Numbered from the stretch's first letter, positions 14,827 through 63,027 are shown. The stretch is 64,000 nt of DNA from Escherichia coli (GCF_003991155.1 NZ_CP031293.1); one strand, 5' to 3'. A program made the numbers and translations. The notes: a model not told the origin generated them from the sequence alone.

Positions 14827-14856
14827 AAAACCCTGCGTGTTCACGCAGGGTTTTTA
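14827..14856 (+). terminator. gltA intrinsic terminator (stem CCCTGCGTG/CACGCAGGG followed by TTTTT); probably bidirectional
   Basis: Hairpin and T-run read from the sequence; an A-run precedes the stem; the dctM stop is 4 nt beyond. Confidence 0.7.
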
Positions 14857-14859
14857 GTT

Positions 14860-16170
14860 CTACACCAACAGCAAAGATATTGCCGGGATATAGGTAATAA
14901 CCAACAGCAGTAAAATAAGACTAACCAGTAGTGGCACCGCTTCTCGCATAAATTGCCCGACAGAAACCTGCACGGTATTACATACCAGCAGCATCACCGT
15001 TCCGACAGGCGGTGATAACGTTCCTAACGATAAGTTGAGGATCATGATGATGCCAAAATGCACCGGATCAATGCCAAAATGAGCCACCACAGGTTTAAGT
15101 AATGGAACTAATATCAGCAGGATGGCACTACCTTCAAGAAACATGCCAAGCACCAGCAGCAATAGATTGATAATCAATAAAAAGACGTATTTATTATCAG
15201 TCAGAGATGTCACAAACTCCGCAACCGTGATACCTGCCCGCTCAAGGGAAAATATCCAGCCCAGCGCGGCACTCGCCATAATGATTAACATGACCGATGC
15301 CGTCGAACGCGCCGTCTCTGAGAGTGCTGTAAATACATGGCTGATTTTCAGTTCGCGATAAATTACAAAACCAATAAACATCACCAATAATACTGCTACG
15401 GCTCCAGCTTCCGTTGGCGTAAAGATATTTGCCCGAATACCACCGATAACCGCAACAATTAAGAACAGTGCTGGCCAGGCCTGCACCAGCGCCACTGACA
15501 CTTCTTTCGGTTTTGGCCAGTGTTCGCTGGAAGGTTTTAAACCGCGCCGAATAGCTACCAGCCATACAGTGACAATCAACATGGCGGAACACAGCAGACC
15601 GGGCAGGATCCCGGCCATAAACATGGAGCCGATGGAGACATCCGCCACCAGTCCGTAAAGGATCAGTGCAATACCCGGTGGAATAATTGGTGTAATCAGC
15701 GAACCACTTGCCGTTATCGCCGCCGCAAAGCCACGGGAATAACCTTTCTGTTCCATTTCCGGCACCATCATGCGCGATAACATCGCAGCATCCGCCAGGT
15801 TTGAGGCGCTAACGCCGCCCATCATGGTACTGACCAGAATATTAGCCCCACCCAGACCACCGCGCATTCTGCCAATCAACACGTTGGCAATTTGCAAAAT
15901 ACGCGCGGCAATACCGGTATAGCTCATTAACGTGCCTAATAAGATAAAAAATGGAATAGCTAACAGCGAAGGGGTTTGCGTCGTGGCAATCAAACGCTGA
16001 ATTGCTACCATTAACGGCACATTTGAATAGCAAAGGAAGTAGGTCAGAATGCCGCAAAACATCGCCAGCCATACCGGCATATTGATAAATAAACAGATGA
16101 ACATAAGCGGAATGATCATTAGCCAGTTATCCAGCCAGCTTCCCGCCAGTAATTCACTCAATGCTGTCAT
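14860..16170 (-). CDS. TRAP transporter large permease (DctM family)
   Basis: 436-aa polytopic membrane ORF; start overlaps the dctQ stop by 1 nt. Confidence 0.85.
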   Translation of the reverse strand: MTALSELLAGSWLDNWLMIIPLMFICLFINMPVWLAMFCGILTYFLCYSNVPLMVAIQRLIATTQTPSLLAIPFFILLGTLMSYTGIAARILQIANVLIGRMRGGLGGANILVSTMMGGVSASNLADAAMLSRMMVPEMEQKGYSRGFAAAITASGSLITPIIPPGIALILYGLVADVSIGSMFMAGILPGLLCSAMLIVTVWLVAIRRGLKPSSEHWPKPKEVSVALVQAWPALFLIVAVIGGIRANIFTPTEAGAVAVLLVMFIGFVIYRELKISHVFTALSETARSTASVMLIIMASAALGWIFSLERAGITVAEFVTSLTDNKYVFLLIINLLLLVLGMFLEGSAILLILVPLLKPVVAHFGIDPVHFGIIMILNLSLGTLSPPVGTVMLLVCNTVQVSVGQFMREAVPLLVSLILLLLVITYIPAISLLLV

Positions 16171-16631
16171 TATTCACCTTCCTTGCGTGGCGTTTTCTTG
16201 ATCAGGTGTAAGGCAGTAAAACAGGCGATACCGATTGCACCAACCGTGACCGCAATATCGATCCAAAACCAGGATATTTTTAATATTTGCGTGGTTTTAA
16301 ATGCTGTTCCGGCAGCTAATTTCCATGCTGACCAAGCCATCACACTCAGTAAAACAATAGATATCAGAGAGACAAATAACGTTAAAACACGTTGCACGCG
16401 TGGTGTCAGTGCATCAGCTAAAAATGGAATCGACAAATGGGTATTATCCCGCTCGGCAACGACCGCACCAAACATGACTACCCAAATCATTAATAAACCG
16501 GAAACCTCTTCTGTCCACTGTAATGGCATATGAAAACAGTAACGCATTATTACCGCAGCAATGGTCATGATTACCAATATAAAGAGCGTTAATACCGCAG
16601 CAACTTCAATCATTTTCCCTAAAAGACGCAT
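16170..16631 (-). CDS. TRAP transporter small permease (DctQ family)
   Basis: About 153 aa with 4 predicted TM segments; start chosen at the ATG (MRLLGKMIEV...) with AGAGG RBS rather than the upstream GTG. Confidence 0.8.
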   Translation of the reverse strand: MRLLGKMIEVAAVLTLFILVIMTIAAVIMRYCFHMPLQWTEEVSGLLMIWVVMFGAVVAERDNTHLSIPFLADALTPRVQRVLTLFVSLISIVLLSVMAWSAWKLAAGTAFKTTQILKISWFWIDIAVTVGAIGIACFTALHLIKKTPRKEGE

Positions 16632-16650
16632 AAACACCTCTGCTCTTAAC

Positions 16651-16672
16651 GGTCGGTGCCGAAACACCGACC
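16651..16672 (-). other. Intercistronic hairpin between the TRAP binding-protein and permease genes (GGTCGGTG..CACCGACC)
   Basis: 8-bp perfect inverted repeat with 6-nt loop, read from the sequence. Confidence 0.4.
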
Positions 16673-16690
16673 AGTCCTTATGCCATGAAG

Positions 16691-17659
16691 TTATTTCAGC
16701 TGTTGCTGAATAGTGTCATACAAACCAGGGGTCCATTCCGGGAATTGTTGATAGACTTTTAAGGCTTTTTCTTTGAAAGGGGCGACGTCAGGATAGATAA
16801 TTTCCACGCCCTGCTCCTGCATGGTTTTCAACATTGTCGCATCCTGCTCAGTGGTAATTTTCTGGCTATATAAACCAGCTTCATACGCTGTCTGGTGAAT
16901 AATATCTAACTGCGCAGGTGTCAGGGTACTGAAAAACGCTTCACCACCCAACCATAATGATGTATTGGTCAGATAGTTCACCATTGACAGATATTTCGCC
17001 TGCTCATGCAGTTTTTGCCCATACAGAACAGAAACCGGGTTTTCCACACCATCGATCATCCCCTGCGTCAGCGCCGGATAAACGTCTCCCAGCGGCATTG
17101 GCGTTGGGGTTGCGCCCATTGCTTCAATGGCTTTAATCTGCATAACGTTATTCGGCACGCGGATCTTCATCCCTTTCAGGTCTTCAGGTGTACGAATCGG
17201 TTTTTTAGCAATGATCTGCCTGGTACCGTACAGATAGTTGCTCATGACAATATGCACACCTTTTTCCCGTAGTTTCTGTTCTTTTTGTTTAAACCAGTCA
17301 CTGGCATAAATCGCAAACAGTTTCTGCGGATCTTCGGTTAAATAAGGCCCAAACAATATTCCCAGGTCTGCATCGTAGTCAGTTAAAAATCCCACATCAC
17401 TGATGGTGATAATATTCATCCCCATCAACGCTTGTTCAGTAATATCTTGTTTAGAACCTAACTGTGAACTTGGGTAAAGTTCGAAAACAATATCTCCATT
17501 GCTTTTTTTCTTCACAAGTTCTGCCCAGTGCTTCACTACTGTATCCGCTGGCTCGCCGGGGTTACTTTCATAGGCGATTTTGATAGTTACCGGTGCGGCA
17601 TTCAGCATCGGACTAAATAAAGCGAAAAGAAATAAAAGTGGTGTCAGTAATTTTTTCAT
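16691..17659 (-). CDS. TRAP transporter periplasmic solute-binding protein (DctP family)
   Basis: 322 aa; signal peptide MKKLLTPLLFLFALFSPMLNA; conserved KIRVP region typical of carboxylate-binding DctP proteins. Confidence 0.85.
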   Translation of the reverse strand: MKKLLTPLLFLFALFSPMLNAAPVTIKIAYESNPGEPADTVVKHWAELVKKKSNGDIVFELYPSSQLGSKQDITEQALMGMNIITISDVGFLTDYDADLGILFGPYLTEDPQKLFAIYASDWFKQKEQKLREKGVHIVMSNYLYGTRQIIAKKPIRTPEDLKGMKIRVPNNVMQIKAIEAMGATPTPMPLGDVYPALTQGMIDGVENPVSVLYGQKLHEQAKYLSMVNYLTNTSLWLGGEAFFSTLTPAQLDIIHQTAYEAGLYSQKITTEQDATMLKTMQEQGVEIIYPDVAPFKEKALKVYQQFPEWTPGLYDTIQQQLK

Positions 17660-17686
17660 TATTATTACCTGTAAGAGCTTTATCGA

Positions 17687-18883
17687 TTAACGGGGATCTG
17701 CCCGACAGACTGCACTTTTGCTGTAATCAAATGCTTTATACGTTAAAACAAACTCCTGATGTTCCAGTCGTTCTGCGGCACAATATTGACCGTTGGCGAC
17801 ATGTTCAATCACCTGCATAATATCGTCTGCAATATCGTCGAGCGTTGCGCCTTCGCTAATTACACGACCGGCATTAACGTCCATATCGTCAGATAAATGC
17901 TCCCACGTCTGCGGGTTATTACACACTTTAATAATAGGAGCGATCACTGAACCAATAACTGAACCGCGACCTGTGGTAAATAACACCATATGACAGCCAG
18001 AGGCGATAAGTTCCAGTGCTTCTGAGGAATCGTTAATATTCGGATACCCAAAACGAGGTTCACCATCAGGCACCACGTCCATCAACCAAAGCCCAGGAAA
18101 GGGCGTTTGTTGCGTCGGCAAAATAACGCCAGCAATCAGCGCATCGCCCGACTTGGTATAAGCCCCAAGGGATTTTTCTTCCTGAGTGGTTAAGCCGCCT
18201 TCAGCATTACCATTAGAAAAACTCCCCAGCCCCATCAAACTGTAATAACGTTCGGCTTTTGCCATTGCCACTTCGATGGCATCACGTGCCTGCGAACTAG
18301 CCGCGCGCGACATCATATGCTGCTCACAACCAAGCAACTCACCGCTTTCTTCAAAAATACAGGTAGCCCCTTTCTCCAGCAGTTGGTCAAAGGCACGTCC
18401 TACTGCCGGGTTACCCGTGATACCACTGGTGCCATCGGAGCCACCGCAGATAGTACCAACCACCAGGTCGCTCCAGTTCAGGATACAACGCGGTGTATCC
18501 GCAAGCTGTTCCAGCATTTCAGCGACCAACTGCTTACCCAGAGTAATGGTGTTGGTCGTGCCTTTATTTTCCTGAATGACCAGCGTATGGCACGGTCGCC
18601 CACTTTCTCGTACTTCTTGCTCCAGCCGACGGCGATCAAAATTCTCGCACCCCAGCGAAATAATCAGTACACCACCTACGTTGCTATGAATCGCCAGATT
18701 TTTTACCAGACGATAGCCATAATCGCTGGGATAACAACCTGAAAAACCAAAATACTGCACGTCGTGACAAGGAAATCCTTCGGCAATCTTTTTAGCGACA
18801 TGGCTGGCACACTCCACCATAAAGATTACCTGCACAGTATTACGAATACCCGGTCGACCATTTTGCCGTACATAACCTTCCAT
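17687..18883 (-). CDS. UxaA-family (altronate/galactarate dehydratase-like) large subunit
   Basis: 398-aa ORF MEGYVRQNGRPGIRNTVQVIFMVECASHV... resembling the C-terminal catalytic part of UxaA/GarD; start overlaps the small-subunit stop (TAATG). Confidence 0.8.
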   Translation of the reverse strand: MEGYVRQNGRPGIRNTVQVIFMVECASHVAKKIAEGFPCHDVQYFGFSGCYPSDYGYRLVKNLAIHSNVGGVLIISLGCENFDRRRLEQEVRESGRPCHTLVIQENKGTTNTITLGKQLVAEMLEQLADTPRCILNWSDLVVGTICGGSDGTSGITGNPAVGRAFDQLLEKGATCIFEESGELLGCEQHMMSRAASSQARDAIEVAMAKAERYYSLMGLGSFSNGNAEGGLTTQEEKSLGAYTKSGDALIAGVILPTQQTPFPGLWLMDVVPDGEPRFGYPNINDSSEALELIASGCHMVLFTTGRGSVIGSVIAPIIKVCNNPQTWEHLSDDMDVNAGRVISEGATLDDIADDIMQVIEHVANGQYCAAERLEHQEFVLTYKAFDYSKSAVCRADPR

Positions 18884-19194
18884 TATGCTTTTTCCTCTGG
18901 CTGATAGCCGGCATCATCATGATGAAAAATGGCGATGGCATTGCTGGCAAGATTATGGGAATGCACATGTTCACCCATGGCAATATCGCGAGTGGCGTGT
19001 CCGATAATGGCGCCGTATTTCAGAATCGAATCACCATTGTTCAGCGCTTCGCAGGCCAGTTTGTGACCCAGGGTAACGGAACTACAGGCCACCATTTCCC
19101 CCTCATCCCACCAGACAATATCGCCACTGGCGATGTCATTCAGCGCGACTACACAGTTATCTTTGGCATGTAGCTTTAACGCACGTTTGCGCAT
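18883..19194 (-). CDS. SAF-domain small subunit of the split UxaA-type dehydratase
   Basis: About 103 aa from MRKRALKLHAKDNCVVALNDIASGDIV... with GGAGG RBS; corresponds to the N-terminal domain of single-chain UxaA. Confidence 0.7.
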   Translation of the reverse strand: MRKRALKLHAKDNCVVALNDIASGDIVWWDEGEMVACSSVTLGHKLACEALNNGDSILKYGAIIGHATRDIAMGEHVHSHNLASNAIAIFHHDDAGYQPEEKA

Positions 19195-19208
19195 AATTCC
19201 TCCGTACA

Positions 19209-19964
19209 TCAGAAGCCGATCAATGCGCCGCCATCCACCACCAGCACCTGACCACTGACAAATGCCGCTGCGTCTGAAGCCAGATAAACCGCAGCCCAAC
19301 CGATATCTTCCGGCTTGCCGAATTTTTTCATCGGTGTCCGCCCCAGGATTTTGTTACGGCGTTCGTCATCACCTTCAATGGCCTTACGCAACATTGGTGT
19401 ATCGATCCAGCCTGGCGCAATACCGTTGACGCGAATCCCATGAACGGCAAGCTCCGTGGTCATACCGCGAATCATGCCGAGATAGGCTGACTTCGCTGCG
19501 CTGTAGCCAGTAACCAGAGGCTGCCCAAGAAATGAGGTCATCGATGCAGTAAAAAGCACACAGCCTTGACCGCGTTGTTTCATATGCGGCACCAGCGCTT
19601 TGGTTAACGCAAATGCGCCGACTACGTGAACGTCGAGTACTGACTCAAAATCACTGACGCTCATCTCTTCAATCGGTTTTTTGCAGTGATTGCCTGCGTT
19701 ATTGACCAGGATATCGATAGCCCCGTGTTCGCTAATAAGCGCATCAACTTTTTCCTGCGCGGCTGCGGTATCCCCGACATCCATTTGTATCCAACTGGCC
19801 TGCGACCCCAATGTTCCGGCGGTCGCTTGCGCCAGCTCGCCGTTCAGGTCAGCAATAATGACCTTCGCCCCGCTGACTATCATGCATTTCGCCATTGCCA
19901 GCCCCAGCCCACTGGCTGCACCGGTGATCAACGCGGTTTTGTTATGTAAAGAAAAAGCATTCAT
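19209..19964 (-). CDS. Short-chain dehydrogenase/reductase (KduD/IdnO-like)
   Basis: 251 aa; TGAASGLG nucleotide-binding motif, IDILVNNAG, YSAAK catalytic motif; AAGGAG RBS. Confidence 0.85.
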   Translation of the reverse strand: MNAFSLHNKTALITGAASGLGLAMAKCMIVSGAKVIIADLNGELAQATAGTLGSQASWIQMDVGDTAAAQEKVDALISEHGAIDILVNNAGNHCKKPIEEMSVSDFESVLDVHVVGAFALTKALVPHMKQRGQGCVLFTASMTSFLGQPLVTGYSAAKSAYLGMIRGMTTELAVHGIRVNGIAPGWIDTPMLRKAIEGDDERRNKILGRTPMKKFGKPEDIGWAAVYLASDAAAFVSGQVLVVDGGALIGF

Positions 19965-19975
19965 GGTGTCGCTCC

Positions 19976-20989
19976 TTAAAGGTCAATGAGGATTTTGGTA
20001 TACGCGCCGGGATCACTTGCCCAGTCGCTAAAAGCATGATCAGCCTGTTCCAGCGGGTAGTGAGCACTCACCAGATTGCTGACCGGATAACGCCCGGACT
20101 CCATCAATGCCAGCACGGCACGAAAATCCGCCACGGTGGCATTGCGCGAACCACGGATATCCAGTTCTTTCATCAGGAACTGCGCACTCTGATAACTCAC
20201 TGGCTGTTTGGCGTAACCGACATAAACCACACGACCGCTAAACGCCACCAACCCTGTAGCCTGTTCAATGGTTTGTTGATTACCCACCGCTTCAATCACC
20301 ACTTCCGGGCCGCGACCGTCATTTAACAGCACCAGTTCTGCCGCCACGTCACATTGCTGCGAATTAAGAAAACGTTGCGCACCGCATTCCAGGGCAATGT
20401 TCTGCTTGCGATCATCAATATCGATAGCAATTACGCGCGCCCCCATGGCGGATGCCGCGGCGATAGCGCCAAGGCCAATTACCCCACAACCGATAACTGC
20501 GACCCATTCACCCACATTAATTTGCGCACGTCTGGCCGCATGTAGTCCCACGGCCAGCGGTTCTACCAGCGCTAACTCATCAACACTTAAGGCATTACAG
20601 ACAATGACTTTATGTGCAGGCATCGTCAGTTGTTGCGCCATCCCCCCCTGACGTTGCACACCAAGAGTTTGGTTGTTTTTACAGGCGTTAGGACGACCGC
20701 TCAGACAGGAGCTGCACACGCCACACTCAGTGCAAGGCAGAACGACCACCCGGTCACCTGGCTTGATCGCCCCTGCCATATCGCCAGTTGCCAGCACCGT
20801 GCCGCCAATTTCATGCCCCGGAATACAGGGATAATTAACCAGCGGATTCAGTCCCCGCCATGTATTGAGGTCAGAACCACACAGTCCGACACGCTCAACA
20901 TTGATTAGCACTTCTCCTTTACCGCAGACAGGTTCGGGGATATCAACAAATCGCGCCTGACTTCCCTGCTCAATGGTTAATGCCTTCAT
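19976..20989 (-). CDS. Zinc-dependent medium-chain dehydrogenase (IdnD / sorbitol dehydrogenase-like)
   Basis: 337 aa; GLCGSDL, GHEIGG, structural-zinc Cys cluster CTECGVCSSC, GCGVIGLG NAD fold; AAGGAGA RBS. Confidence 0.85.
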   Translation of the reverse strand: MKALTIEQGSQARFVDIPEPVCGKGEVLINVERVGLCGSDLNTWRGLNPLVNYPCIPGHEIGGTVLATGDMAGAIKPGDRVVVLPCTECGVCSSCLSGRPNACKNNQTLGVQRQGGMAQQLTMPAHKVIVCNALSVDELALVEPLAVGLHAARRAQINVGEWVAVIGCGVIGLGAIAAASAMGARVIAIDIDDRKQNIALECGAQRFLNSQQCDVAAELVLLNDGRGPEVVIEAVGNQQTIEQATGLVAFSGRVVYVGYAKQPVSYQSAQFLMKELDIRGSRNATVADFRAVLALMESGRYPVSNLVSAHYPLEQADHAFSDWASDPGAYTKILIDL

Positions 20990-21001
20990 TCATTGCTCTC
21001 C

Positions 21002-21688
21002 TTACATTACGCCGAAGGTTTCAAAGGCCTGTACCGTGCTCATGCCATCACTGATGGCTTTGCGCACTTCACTTTCAGTTGCCACTTTTTCCAGGGCCTG
21101 GGTAATAACTTCTTTCTCAACAACCTGGGGAATAATCAGTAATCCATCACGATCACCAAACACGATATCGCCCGGATTCACCCGCACGCCGTGAAATTCA
21201 ATAGGTACGCCGAAGTCGATGACCTTGCCGCGCGGACCTTGATCTTGTGCGTAAGTGCCATGACAAAAGGTGGGAAATTTCAATTCAAGAATTTCAGCAG
21301 AGTCACGGGCGTAACCATCGAGTACCGCACCTGCTGCTTTCAGATGCATGGCACGGGTAGACATCAACCCGCCCCACAAGGCATAGCGCAGAGAGCTGCC
21401 CGTAGTGATGTAAACATCGTTCTCTTTGAGGGCATCCAGCGCTTCAAACATGATGCCAAACGGTTTTTCGCCAATCGCCGTCTTACCCGACGTCGATTTG
21501 GTTTCGTAAACGTCCGACTCCAGCACCGGCATTGCCCGGCCTGCCACCACCGTATTCACATCCAGCGGCTTGATTGCCGGAGAAACAAACTGGTGCATAT
21601 AGCCCAGCGTGTCGAGAATATCGCCAACCACGGCGGTAAATAGCCGGGTTTTCATCAAAGCAAAAAGTTCGTTATCACTCTTCCACAT
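21002..21688 (-). CDS. RraA-like protein, putative class II 4-hydroxy-2-oxoacid aldolase
   Basis: About 228 aa from MWKSDNELFALMKTRLFTAVVGDILD... (RraA/MenG-like fold family); first gene of the operon. Confidence 0.75.
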   Translation of the reverse strand: MWKSDNELFALMKTRLFTAVVGDILDTLGYMHQFVSPAIKPLDVNTVVAGRAMPVLESDVYETKSTSGKTAIGEKPFGIMFEALDALKENDVYITTGSSLRYALWGGLMSTRAMHLKAAGAVLDGYARDSAEILELKFPTFCHGTYAQDQGPRGKVIDFGVPIEFHGVRVNPGDIVFGDRDGLLIIPQVVEKEVITQALEKVATESEVRKAISDGMSTVQAFETFGVM

Positions 21689-21694
21689 TATTTT

Positions 21695-21728
21695 CACCCT
21701 GTAAGCCTGTTTAACAGGTTTACAGGGT
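21695..21728. promoter_or_regulatory. Nested perfect palindrome (ACCCTGTAA-G-CCTGTT-T-AACAGG-T-TTACAGGGT) at the 5' end of the operon; candidate operator or RBS-occluding RNA hairpin
   Basis: Read from the sequence; lies 7 nt upstream of the RraA-like start codon and overlaps its Shine-Dalgarno region. Confidence 0.35.
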
Positions 21729-21951
21729 AAGGAGAAAAAGCGCACAATACTGCGAAGGGCGTCACGAAAAAGTTGTGTATTTACTATTTCTTCGCCACTC
21801 TTTCACACAATATGTCTTTGATTCGCACTGCATGGCGGGCGCACAGGCGCAGTAGTCTATTGATAATCAAGGGTTCTGGAGGAAAATATGAAGGATACAG
21901 TCCCGGTATTCTGGATTTTACCGACCAGGAAAAAGTACAACAGGAGTAAAA

Positions 21952-22665
21952 ATGAGTGAGAGTGCGTTATTGACCAGCGTAACGTTATCGTCACAGGTCA
22001 AAAATCATATTCTTAATCTGATCGCCGAACAAAAATTGACACCGGGGATGCCAGTTCCCAGTGAAATTCAGTTGATTCAGAAATTGGGCGTCAGTCGGGG
22101 TATTGTGCGTGAGGCCTATCGTTCACTTGCCGCCCTGGGGATTCTGGAAACGCACAGCGGTAAAGTGCCACGGATCAAAAAATTTGATGATGAAGTGCTG
22201 CGCGTGGTGTTTGGATTTGCCCTGGCGACCGAACAAGTAACAACAGAGCAAATTCTTCAAGTACGTCGCTGGCTAGAGTTGGGCGTTGTGGAAGCTGCTG
22301 CCCGTAATGGCGGAGAAGAAGATTTTGCTAACCTACGGGCTGAAATGGCAAAAATCCGCGAACAGTTCGATGATGTCGAAAGCTTTATCACCCATGACAT
22401 CCGCTTCCATCAGTTACTCGCCGTTGCCTCAAAAAATCCGCTTTTTATGATGTTATTGCAGGCATTACATCAGCAATTGCGGCAATCCATCCAGGAGGGA
22501 TTAAACGCCCAAAGCGATCAGAAAGAGTATGGCAATCACATCATCACACTACACCAGAAAATCTGCGACGCTGTGTGTGCCAGAGATGTCGAAACGGCGA
22601 CTCAAGCCATGAAATCACACTTCGACAGCCCGGTCAGTGCACTGATCAATAATTCCTCGCCATAA
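21952..22665 (+). CDS. GntR-family transcriptional regulator (FadR-type C-terminal domain)
   Basis: 237 aa; N-terminal winged HTH (EIQLIQKLGVSRGIVREAYRSL) followed by an all-helical domain; divergent from the catabolic operon. Confidence 0.85.
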   Translation: MSESALLTSVTLSSQVKNHILNLIAEQKLTPGMPVPSEIQLIQKLGVSRGIVREAYRSLAALGILETHSGKVPRIKKFDDEVLRVVFGFALATEQVTTEQILQVRRWLELGVVEAAARNGGEEDFANLRAEMAKIREQFDDVESFITHDIRFHQLLAVASKNPLFMMLLQALHQQLRQSIQEGLNAQSDQKEYGNHIITLHQKICDAVCARDVETATQAMKSHFDSPVSALINNSSP

Positions 22666-29554: not shown

Positions 29555-29588
29555 GCCTGATAAGACGCTCGCTGCGTTTTATCAGGCT
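29555..29588. repeat. REP-like palindromic element between convergent dtpD and phr
   Basis: GCCTGATAAGACGC...GCGTTTTATCAGGC inverted repeat. Confidence 0.45.
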
Positions 29589-40229: not shown

Positions 40230-40486
40230 TCTACCGACTAAGGGCACTTCAGCGTACAGGTCTTCCTGACTCTCTGTATTACAGGCATATGCCTGTATTC
40301 CGCAGTGCTCATTCTCTGTTAACCCTTGTATTATCAGCCACCGGACTGATAAGGGTTTCTGCATTCTGAAAAAAGCAAACTTCTGATTAATTTATCAGCG
40401 GGGTAACTTTGCTTTTTTTCCGGCACGATCGATTTCTCATTCGAGAAATTGAGGACCTGCTATTACCAAAAATAAAGAGTTGGAAA

Positions 40487-44012: not shown

Positions 44013-44046
44013 AAAAAAGGGCGATCTTCTGACCGCCCTTTTTCTT
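44013..44046. terminator. Bidirectional intrinsic terminator between convergent potE and pgm
   Basis: A-run, stem AAGGGCG/CGCCCTT, T-run. Confidence 0.65.
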
Positions 44047-48321: not shown

Positions 48322-48360
48322 TGTGATGCGGCGTAGACTCATGTCTACGCCGTATTAATA

Positions 48361-49056: not shown

Positions 49057-49071
49057 GCCAGCCTGAACGAG

Positions 49072-49100
49072 AAAAGCCAACCTGCGGGTTGGCTTTTTTA
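49072..49100 (+). terminator. fur intrinsic terminator
   Basis: Stem AAGCCAACC/GGTTGGCTT followed by TTTTTT. Confidence 0.7.
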
Positions 49101-53026: not shown

Positions 53027-53228
53027 CGTGGATTCCTCAAAGCGTAAACAACGTATAACGGCGTATGATCTTATAAGCGGGACAGGCTGACAACTGTTAG
53101 TTAGTGAAAATCGAAAATCTCACTGAGATTATGGGGATGATTGATGAAAAAAAAAGCGGCAGAGAAGATCTCCACCGCTTGTCATTGTTGGATGCGACGC
53201 TCAAGCGTCGCATCAGGCATAAAGAAGA

Positions 53229-59546: not shown

Positions 59547-59552
59547 ATAGCA

Positions 59553-59585
59553 ACCACGCCTCAGGGCGTGGTTTCTTATTTTTAG
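59553..59585 (+). terminator. Intrinsic terminator after nagD
   Basis: Stem ACCACGCC/GGCGTGGT followed by a T-run. Confidence 0.65.
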
Positions 59586-61475: not shown

Positions 61476-61505
61476 AAACAGCCCCGGTAAAATCCGGGGC
61501 TGTTT
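61476..61505. terminator. Bidirectional terminator between asnB and the convergent 145-aa gene
   Basis: Stem AACAGCCCCGG/CCGGGGCTGTT. Confidence 0.55.
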
Positions 61506-62985: not shown

Positions 62986-63012
62986 TAAAAAAGCTCGCTT
63001 CGGCGAGCTTTT
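62986..63012 (+). terminator. Intrinsic terminator of the tRNA operon
   Basis: Stem AAAAGCTCGC/GCGAGCTTTT followed by a T-run. Confidence 0.7.
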
Positions 63013-63027
63013 TGCTTTTCTGCGTAT

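Follow-up and report, generated by a model that had tools for sequence, protein, structure and literature searches.

Regulators of the GntR family bind sites of the general form NyGT-Nx-ACNy, and in most FadR-subfamily groups GT and AC are separated by 3 nt, in some by 2 nt (Suvorova et al. 2015, PMC4494728). [quoted passage not shown] Palindromes with additional symmetry occur as well, for example the site of the HutC-type regulator SdhR, TCTTATGTCTTATATAAGACATAAGA (PMC4494728). For the AnsR group of the FadR subfamily, the supplement of PMC4494728 predicts the motif ACCTGTcaGACAGC and lists sites such as ACCTGTCAGACAGCC along with the helix GVSRSVIREALRS. Among FadR-type sugar-acid repressors, DgoR binds inverted repeats that overlap its own promoter (PMC11705089). 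On its (GGTATA)3 site, E. coli NanR fills repeated boxes only a few bp apart cooperatively with several dimers, and a 32-residue N-terminal extension is needed for this (PMC8012715).

We analyzed a stretch of 64,000 nucleotides of Escherichia coli DNA (64 kb, referred to as the window), in which a nested palindrome lies between the gene of a FadR/GntR-family regulator and a divergent catabolic operon. Compared to the operators of the FadR subfamily (PdhR, LldR, ExuR/UxuR, DgoR, and the FadR boxes), the palindrome has the same 17-bp 7-3-7 layout with GT and AC 3 nt apart, the same placement in a divergon between regulator gene and catabolic operon, nearer to the structural operon, and a regulator with the same GntR winged helix-turn-helix and FCD domains. 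In contrast, the half-site is CCTGT rather than TTGGT or TTGTA, and an extra conserved box on each side extends the site to a 33-bp nested palindrome. The likeness to DgoR lies in the putative sugar-acid operon and in inverted repeats that would here overlap the promoter. The core CTGT-N3-ACAG is identical to that of AnsR (predicted ACCTGT-N3-ACAGC), and the helices are nearly identical (GVSRSVIREALRS for AnsR versus GVSRGIVREAYRSL here). However, AnsR is a regulator of Actinobacteria and Rhizobiales with other target genes, and no nested outer boxes are reported in its listed 15-21-mers. The exact motif of the window was absent from the supplement of Suvorova et al., where only the related AnsR core was present. 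Sites of the SdhR type resemble the palindrome in that each arm is a direct repeat of the half-site, which makes the palindrome nested, although SdhR belongs to the HutC subfamily. NanR was the best NCBIfam match of the regulator (119 bits, below the curated cut-off of 260). However, the NanR site consists of direct repeats of one box, whereas the site here is an inverted pair of direct repeats, and approximately 10 residues precede the helix-turn-helix of the regulator compared to 32 in NanR, so that an extension of the NanR type is missing.

The regulator, filed as WP_000004201/WP_000004202, possesses domains PF00392 and PF07729 and carries the RefSeq name FadR/GntR family. Together with 8 further genes it makes up a cassette (14860-22665) that is accessory and lies on the chromosome between gltA and abrB/nei. 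The cassette was found in 663 of 5,426 complete E. coli genomes (about 12%), always in the chromosome; its carriers include ST131 strains such as JJ1886, and also E. whittamii and E. albertii. Judging by its gene content, the operon appears to serve the catabolism of a sugar acid, either an aldonate or a uronate. A literature search on the operon and its regulator found no paper characterizing them, and a paper on L-threonate dehydrogenase was checked and was unrelated to the operon. The first gene of the operon begins with ATGTGG at the position of 21688 in all enterobacterial homologues. A GTG at 21745 was considered as the start of this gene and was rejected as a mere upstream extension of the reading frame, since the homologues begin with ATGTGG at 21688. 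E. coli isolate 30602_1#109 (L026) has ATA in place of the ATG at the equivalent of 21686-21688; RefSeq annotates a shorter RraA-family protein from a downstream start in this isolate, and the outer arm of its palindrome carries ACTCTGTAA. On the regulator side, a 23-codon upstream open reading frame, MKDTVPVFWILPTRKKYNRSKNE, with a strong GGAGG Shine-Dalgarno sequence occupies 21888-21959 of the plus strand, and its stop codon overlaps the ATG of the regulator gene. Eight of its 23 residues differ in the E. coli allele L002; in E. albertii, 15 nt are deleted and the Shine-Dalgarno sequence is weakened. The reading frame is probably not a conserved peptide; it could provide translational coupling into the regulator gene.

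On the plus strand, the palindrome reads ACCCTGTAA-G-CCTGTT-T-AACAGG-T-TTACAGGGT, in which outer 9-bp arms enclose an inner 6-1-6 palindrome with a single noncomplementary G/T pair between them. A repeat search returned inverted arms of 16 nt at 21696-21711 and 21713-21728, 94% complementary and 1 nt apart, whose sole mismatch is the G/T "spacer" pair. A preliminary description of this DNA had reported the nested perfect palindrome, with its 9-bp outer repeat around 6-1-6, at 21695-21728. The sequence and the end were correct; the start had been placed one base early and is at 21696. The same description had the palindrome ending 7 nt upstream of the start codon and had located the only Shine-Dalgarno-like purines in the 3' arm, and both statements held: exactly 7 nt (GAAAATA) precede the ATG at 21688, and CAGGGUG lies in that arm. 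The features of the locus, and the palindromes of related loci, are summarized in Table 1.

Table 1. Features of the cassette and its intergenic region in the window, and palindromes at related loci
Feature	Position or locus	Strand	Remarks
Zn-dependent alcohol dehydrogenase, short-chain dehydrogenase, two-part UxaA-type dehydratase, and TRAP transporter DctPQM (rest of operon)	14860..20989	-	
RraA-family gene (class II aldolase-like), first in operon	21002..21688	-	starts with ATG 21688
Complete nested palindrome, predicted operator	21696..21728	.	dyad at 21712; minus strand ACCCTGTAAACCTGTTAAACAGGCTTACAGGGT
Outer gene-side additional box ACAGG	21698..21702	-	overlaps Shine-Dalgarno-like CAGGGTG (21695-21701)
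Inner core, 17 bp, 7-3-7 with GT-N3-AC; predicted primary site for one regulator dimer	21704..21720	.	minus strand AACCTGT-TAA-ACAGGCT
Promoter-like TTTACA-18-CACAAT toward regulator gene	21719..21748	+	consensus match only
Outer promoter-side additional box CCTGT	21722..21726	-	8 nt upstream of inner CCTGT, same orientation
Candidate -10 hexamer TACCCT of a putative class II CRP-dependent promoter	21724..21729	-	position fits a CRP site at -41.5
CRP-like site, cGTGA-N6-TCgCA on minus strand	21751..21766	.	cGTGAcgccctTCgCA; center 46.5 bp upstream of dyad; matches 8/10 core positions
Divergent FadR/GntR-family regulator, GntR winged helix-turn-helix and FCD	21952..22665	+	recognition helix GVSRGIVREAYRSL
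Palindrome of other E. coli, E. whittamii, E. albertii	L002-L004, L025-L027		window-like, with outer-arm variants
Palindrome of Entomohabitans	L005		AGCCTATCAACCTGTTAAACAGGTTAACAGC
Palindrome of Succinivibrionaceae MAG	L006		ATCAACCTGTCAGACAGTCTGAT
Palindrome of Citrobacter/E. coli MFS-type cassette adjoining aceBAK	L028/L029		AACCTATAAACCTGTTTGACAGGTTTATAGGTT
Palindrome of Sodalis ligni	L030		CCTGTAAACCTGTTTGACAGGTTTCAAGG
Palindrome of Serratia	L031		CCTATCAACCTGTTTGACAGGTTGATAGG
Palindrome of marRAB-adjoining locus	L032		GCTATCAACCTGTTTGACAGGTTGATAGGC
Palindrome of C. braakii	L033		perfect 23-1-23 palindrome around ACCTGTCAGACAGGT
Palindrome of marRAB-adjoining locus	L036		ACCTGTAAACCTGTTTGACAGGTTTACAGGT
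Palindrome of A+T-rich metagenomic locus	L037		core only

In the window, no other palindrome combined 16-nt arms with 1 mismatch or fewer; of 30 dinucleotide shuffles, 29 contained none of this kind. A pattern search of the window with 3 mismatches allowed returned 1 match compared to 0.00 expected. The palindrome is far beyond chance. When a 47-nt stretch containing it was compared by BLAST to the 5,426 E. coli genomes, exactly 1 copy per genome was found in 660 genomes, and no copy was found on plasmids. At a lower arm length (at least 12 nt, at most 1 mismatch), the window had 18 matches from approximately 10 distinct palindromes, compared to a shuffle mean of 0.8. Those at 49071-49098, 53190-53215, 62987-63014, 44015-44042, 48327-48354, 59549-59576, 61477-61504, and 29557-29585 are probably terminators or REP elements. 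A perfect G+C-rich palindrome at 14827-14854, AAAACCCTGCGTG-TT-CACGCAGGGTTTT, flanked by A/T runs and situated between the convergent gltA and dctM, resembles a bidirectional intrinsic terminator.

Loci from other lineages were gathered by means of the RraA protein and the homologues of the regulator. The nested palindrome was present in the intergenic region between regulator and operon at every examined locus in which the regulator is divergent from the structural operon, and it accompanied orthologues or paralogues of the regulator in about 10 lineages and at least 4 genomic contexts. The neighboring chromosomal genes vary by locus, and the transporter is of either the TRAP or the MFS type. 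What these palindromes share is an invariant CCTGT-N3-ACAGG core and, in each arm, a pair of CCTRT boxes that are 8 nt apart. Alphaproteobacterial RraA homologues (L007-L024) lie inside operons without a divergent regulator and were therefore uninformative for the site; likewise, no usable site was obtained from a Martelella locus with the regulator at the operon end (L034) or from a locus with a different context (L035).

A paralogous cassette (L028/L029, L032, L036, L030, L031, and L033) has an MFS instead of a TRAP transporter and a regulator approximately 62% identical to that of the window. It is situated by aceBAK in Citrobacter and some E. coli, by marRAB in other Enterobacteriaceae, and near gyrA in Serratia. 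If both cassettes were present, a strain would possess two regulators with nearly the same operator core, so cross-talk is possible. On the C. braakii-type metagenome contig L033, the putative operator lies inside the perfect 23-1-23 palindrome CACACTCATCATATACACCTGTC-A-GACAGGTGTATATGATGAGTGTG (L033:2530-2590), 125 nt from the start codon. When metagenome contigs were scanned with a degenerate pattern, 21 matches were obtained: 10 were the cassette, 1 (L047) lay beside a distant GntR regulator, 2 (L041 and L045) had related palindromes, and the last 8 fell in A+T-rich DNA, had no regulator in the vicinity, and are probably due to chance. The L047 site (L047:2204-2228), ACCTGTCAACCTGTCnGACAGGTTGACAGGT, is a perfect nested palindrome on a high-G+C metagenomic contig, with eda-kdgK-like genes on one side and the regulator gene on the other; the recognition helix of the regulator, GVSRPVVREAFRSL, is similar to that in the window, and its gene is found between the eda/kdgK-like genes and a mannitol-dehydrogenase-like gene. 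Because this regulator is only 29.5% identical and yet has a perfect nested palindrome beside it, the CCTGT-box architecture appears to be wider than the RraA cassette.

Neither CCTGT nor ACAG varied in any of the 14 sites, whose hosts range from E. coli to Succinivibrionaceae. When the 11 non-redundant sites were aligned at the dyad, the information content was approximately 2 bits at CCTGT (-6 to -2) and ACAGG (+2 to +6), and the invariant T at -12 and -10 was mirrored by a near-invariant A at +10 and +12. Information content was high from -14 to +16, fell to about 0-0.7 bits in the flanks, and was essentially nil past approximately ±17. A weight matrix trained on non-Escherichia sites only gave the window site a score of 39.6 bits. 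In the same scan, the next independent position of the 64-kb window reached 8.8 bits, so that neither the vicinity of the regulator gene nor the rest of the window yielded a second operator. A core match with 1 mismatch at 40273 was considered as a second site and was rejected as lacking extended similarity. On the minus strand the site has the FadR-subfamily form, G14T15-TAA-A19C20, and this GT and AC are invariant in all 14 sites. The recognition helix was GVSRG[IV][IV]RE[AS]YRSL in all loci carrying the motif, save for one Ser-to-Lys change (GVSKG) in L028. This agreement of helix and motif is correlative and is consistent with an operator of the FadR subfamily.

The distance between the palindrome and the structural operon was not constant. 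In TRAP-type Enterobacteriaceae loci, 6-12 nt separated the palindrome edge from the start codon, and 23-29 nt (24 bp in the window) separated the dyad from the ATG; at all other loci, these distances were 49-125 nt and 66-142 nt, respectively. Since the distance to the ATG varies between loci, the conserved object is the DNA site and not its relation to the ribosome-binding site.

A CRP-like site is the best intergenic match to TGTGA-N6-TCACA in the window. At 13 of 14 loci, the best CRP-like match of the intergenic region took one of five positions upstream of the dyad. Counted from the dyad to its center, these were -46.5 or -47.5 bp for TRAP-type loci and L028, -36.5 or -38.5 bp for MFS-type loci, and -26.5 bp for the Succinivibrionaceae locus L006. 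Across the loci L002-L006, L028-L033, and L036, this spacing shifts between lineages by steps of approximately 10 bp, or roughly one helical turn. A promoter scan gave no consensus sigma-70 promoter for the minus strand. Entomohabitans (L005) has TAGCCT at the place of the candidate -10 hexamer. Activating CRP sites sit at -41.5 or further upstream, so a transcription start upstream of approximately -5 from the dyad would be excluded, which would make the 5' arm a part of the promoter. The dyad lies 46.5 bp downstream of the CRP-like site and 24 bp upstream of the ATG, so that the operator is predicted to overlap -10 to +20 of a CRP-dependent promoter; a promoter that avoids the palindrome would have no room between the CRP-like site and the ATG. 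For the window we infer a class II promoter, in which the operator would span about -11 to +22 and no more than a portion of the inner hairpin would be present in the mRNA; among the lineages, some fit a class I and others a class II CRP model. In the other direction, the -35 hexamer of the promoter-like sequence facing the regulator gene lies inside a palindrome arm, so autoregulation is possible.

Taken together, these data suggest that the palindrome is most likely the operator of the divergent FadR-type regulator, with a canonical 17-bp core, unusually well-conserved auxiliary boxes, and an overlapping promoter that probably depends on CRP. The preliminary description had called the palindrome, as DNA, a plausible operator for the divergent GntR-family regulator, and the comparison of loci lends this strong support through the co-occurrence in about 10 lineages, the GT-N3-AC core of the FadR subfamily, and the single copy. 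A dimer of the regulator would recognize the 17-bp core AACCTGT-N3-ACAGGyT, and on either side a CCTRT box lying 8 bp further out may serve as an auxiliary half-site that recruits or stabilizes further subunits. The bound regulator would then block RNA polymerase at the CRP-dependent promoter, acting in repression rather than activation, and a sugar acid or intermediate of the pathway would bind the FCD domain and cause the regulator to be released. Ligand-responsive control of the operon can reasonably be expected from the FCD effector domain. Several observations count against the operator, however. One FadR-type dimer cannot reach boxes 26 bp apart, and the 23-1-23 palindrome of C. braakii exceeds any plausible dimer footprint. 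The proposed -10 hexamer TACCCT is a weak one, and the agreement of the CRP-like site with the CRP core is limited to 8 of 10 positions. Symmetric double substitutions in the outer arms, moreover, are also predicted by a hairpin.

These double substitutions keep the outer arms complementary and were found at 7 pairs and in 18 cells, a cell count reached by 0 of 500 shuffles. They fit a hairpin, a homo-oligomer site with co-evolving half-sites, and correction of quasipalindromes alike, and do not separate the three. Template-switch "correction" of quasipalindromes is a mutational mechanism. Binding of a protein needs either co-evolving half-sites or such correction to account for the double substitutions, whereas an RNA hairpin would account for them directly, and an E. 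coli allele (L002) has a compensatory change from C-G to U-A in the outer stem. A fully transcribed palindrome would fold (approximately -20 kcal/mol), sequester the Shine-Dalgarno-like CAGGGUG, and lower or condition translation, either as the main function of the palindrome or, in Escherichia, as a second layer on the operator. The preliminary description had held that the hairpin would occlude the Shine-Dalgarno sequence, and folding of the 5' UTR reproduced this burial in silico for RNA containing both arms: the hairpin dominated the fold (-27.3 kcal/mol for an 81-nt leader; z = -3.9 for 101 nt), and the unpaired probability of CAGGGUG was approximately 0. Starting transcription inside the palindrome, as on the promoter model, left the Shine-Dalgarno bases still predicted to be paired in a much weaker fold (-9.5 versus -27.3 kcal/mol). 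The CAGG of the Shine-Dalgarno region is within the arm in all Escherichia alleles. However, burial as a means of control was not conserved. The start-codon gap of 7 nt in the window is 49-125 nt in other lineages, and with gaps ranging from 6 to 125 nt no conserved pairing of the Shine-Dalgarno sequence with an upstream anti-Shine-Dalgarno sequence was found. The Shine-Dalgarno sequence lies outside the palindrome in Entomohabitans (L005) and in E. albertii (L004), where it is canonical (AAGGAG and AGGAAG, respectively), and at all MFS-type loci. The majority allele, TTACAGGAC, which JJ1886 shares with others to a total of 546 of 660 E. coli genomes, forms two A-C mismatches at the outermost pairs, is without "GGGTG", and leaves ACGAAA free. 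Among the non-Watson-Crick cells of the sense strand, A-C (11) outnumbered G-U (4), so that the G-U wobble bias of an RNA stem was not seen on this strand. The stem bases, moreover, are invariant over a large phylogenetic distance; a purely structural element has no such need, and protein recognition explains such constancy in very distant taxa. Activation from a CRP site centered at -46.5 relative to the dyad is incompatible with transcription that begins upstream of the palindrome, and the 5' arm therefore probably does not enter the RNA. A search of Rfam 15 in E-value mode returned only two sub-threshold miRNA-precursor matches (19.9 and 19.6 bits versus a gathering threshold of 76), and no ligand-sensing element was found. 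The Shine-Dalgarno bases would be buried, if the palindrome were fully transcribed, as in the leader hairpins of RNA thermometers and translational operators, but the relation of hairpin to Shine-Dalgarno sequence is unconserved here, and neither a sensing element nor an Rfam match accompanies it. We therefore consider translational control by the hairpin improbable; the Shine-Dalgarno overlap looks like a side effect confined to the Escherichia lineage and at most secondary. A slim chance is also given to a combined scenario, in which a four-box 33-bp operator (two CCTRT boxes per arm, 8 bp apart) would be held by two dimers or a tetramer, a geometry structurally undescribed for FadR-type proteins, and a deletion in the Escherichia TRAP type would have set the site against the start codon. 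In that scenario, the palindrome would also act in the mRNA, as a hairpin covering the Shine-Dalgarno sequence of read-through or upstream-promoter transcripts, and the outer double substitutions would reflect selection on the dual role.

Binding of another factor, either a global regulator or, in some E. coli, the paralogous regulator of the MFS-type cassette, would leave the palindrome a DNA site with a different owner. Cross-binding is conceivable, given that the paralogous cassettes of E. coli and Citrobacter have 62%-identical regulators and nearly the same core. However, the only constant companions of the site are the regulator and the RraA/UxaA operon, while all other surroundings change, and the 64-kb window had no second site; we regard another factor as very unlikely. 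To our knowledge, the motif is also unlike the CRP, Cra, LacI-family, or KdgR consensus. A stable G+C-containing hairpin in intergenic DNA of an accessory island could, alternatively, be a generic repeat or structural element, such as a REP/BIME, a transposon end, or an intrinsic terminator. A REP/BIME would require many copies per genome, whereas the palindrome had a single match in the window and the one copy per genome described above, with none on plasmids. The preliminary description had itself raised recurrence at many genomic sites as grounds for abandoning a regulatory role, and the search for such copies was negative. Neither strand has a U/T tract after the palindrome, a terminator scan made no call, and the palindrome is situated between two divergent start codons and not at gene ends, all of which speak against an intrinsic terminator. 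The probability of a generic element is, in our estimation, next to nil.

The operator proposed here for the FadR-type regulator reveals no new regulatory principle and is unsurprising to a specialist. Within the GntR family, the palindrome is a clean and strongly conserved case of the architecture with additional half-sites. The motif CCTRTmAACCTGT-N3-ACAGGTTkAyAGG may be used as a search tool for further members of the regulon, and the predicted operator could guide the design of reporters or biosensors for finding the sugar acid that acts as inducer. The prediction would thus be useful for establishing both the inducer and the regulon of an uncharacterized accessory operon of E. coli.
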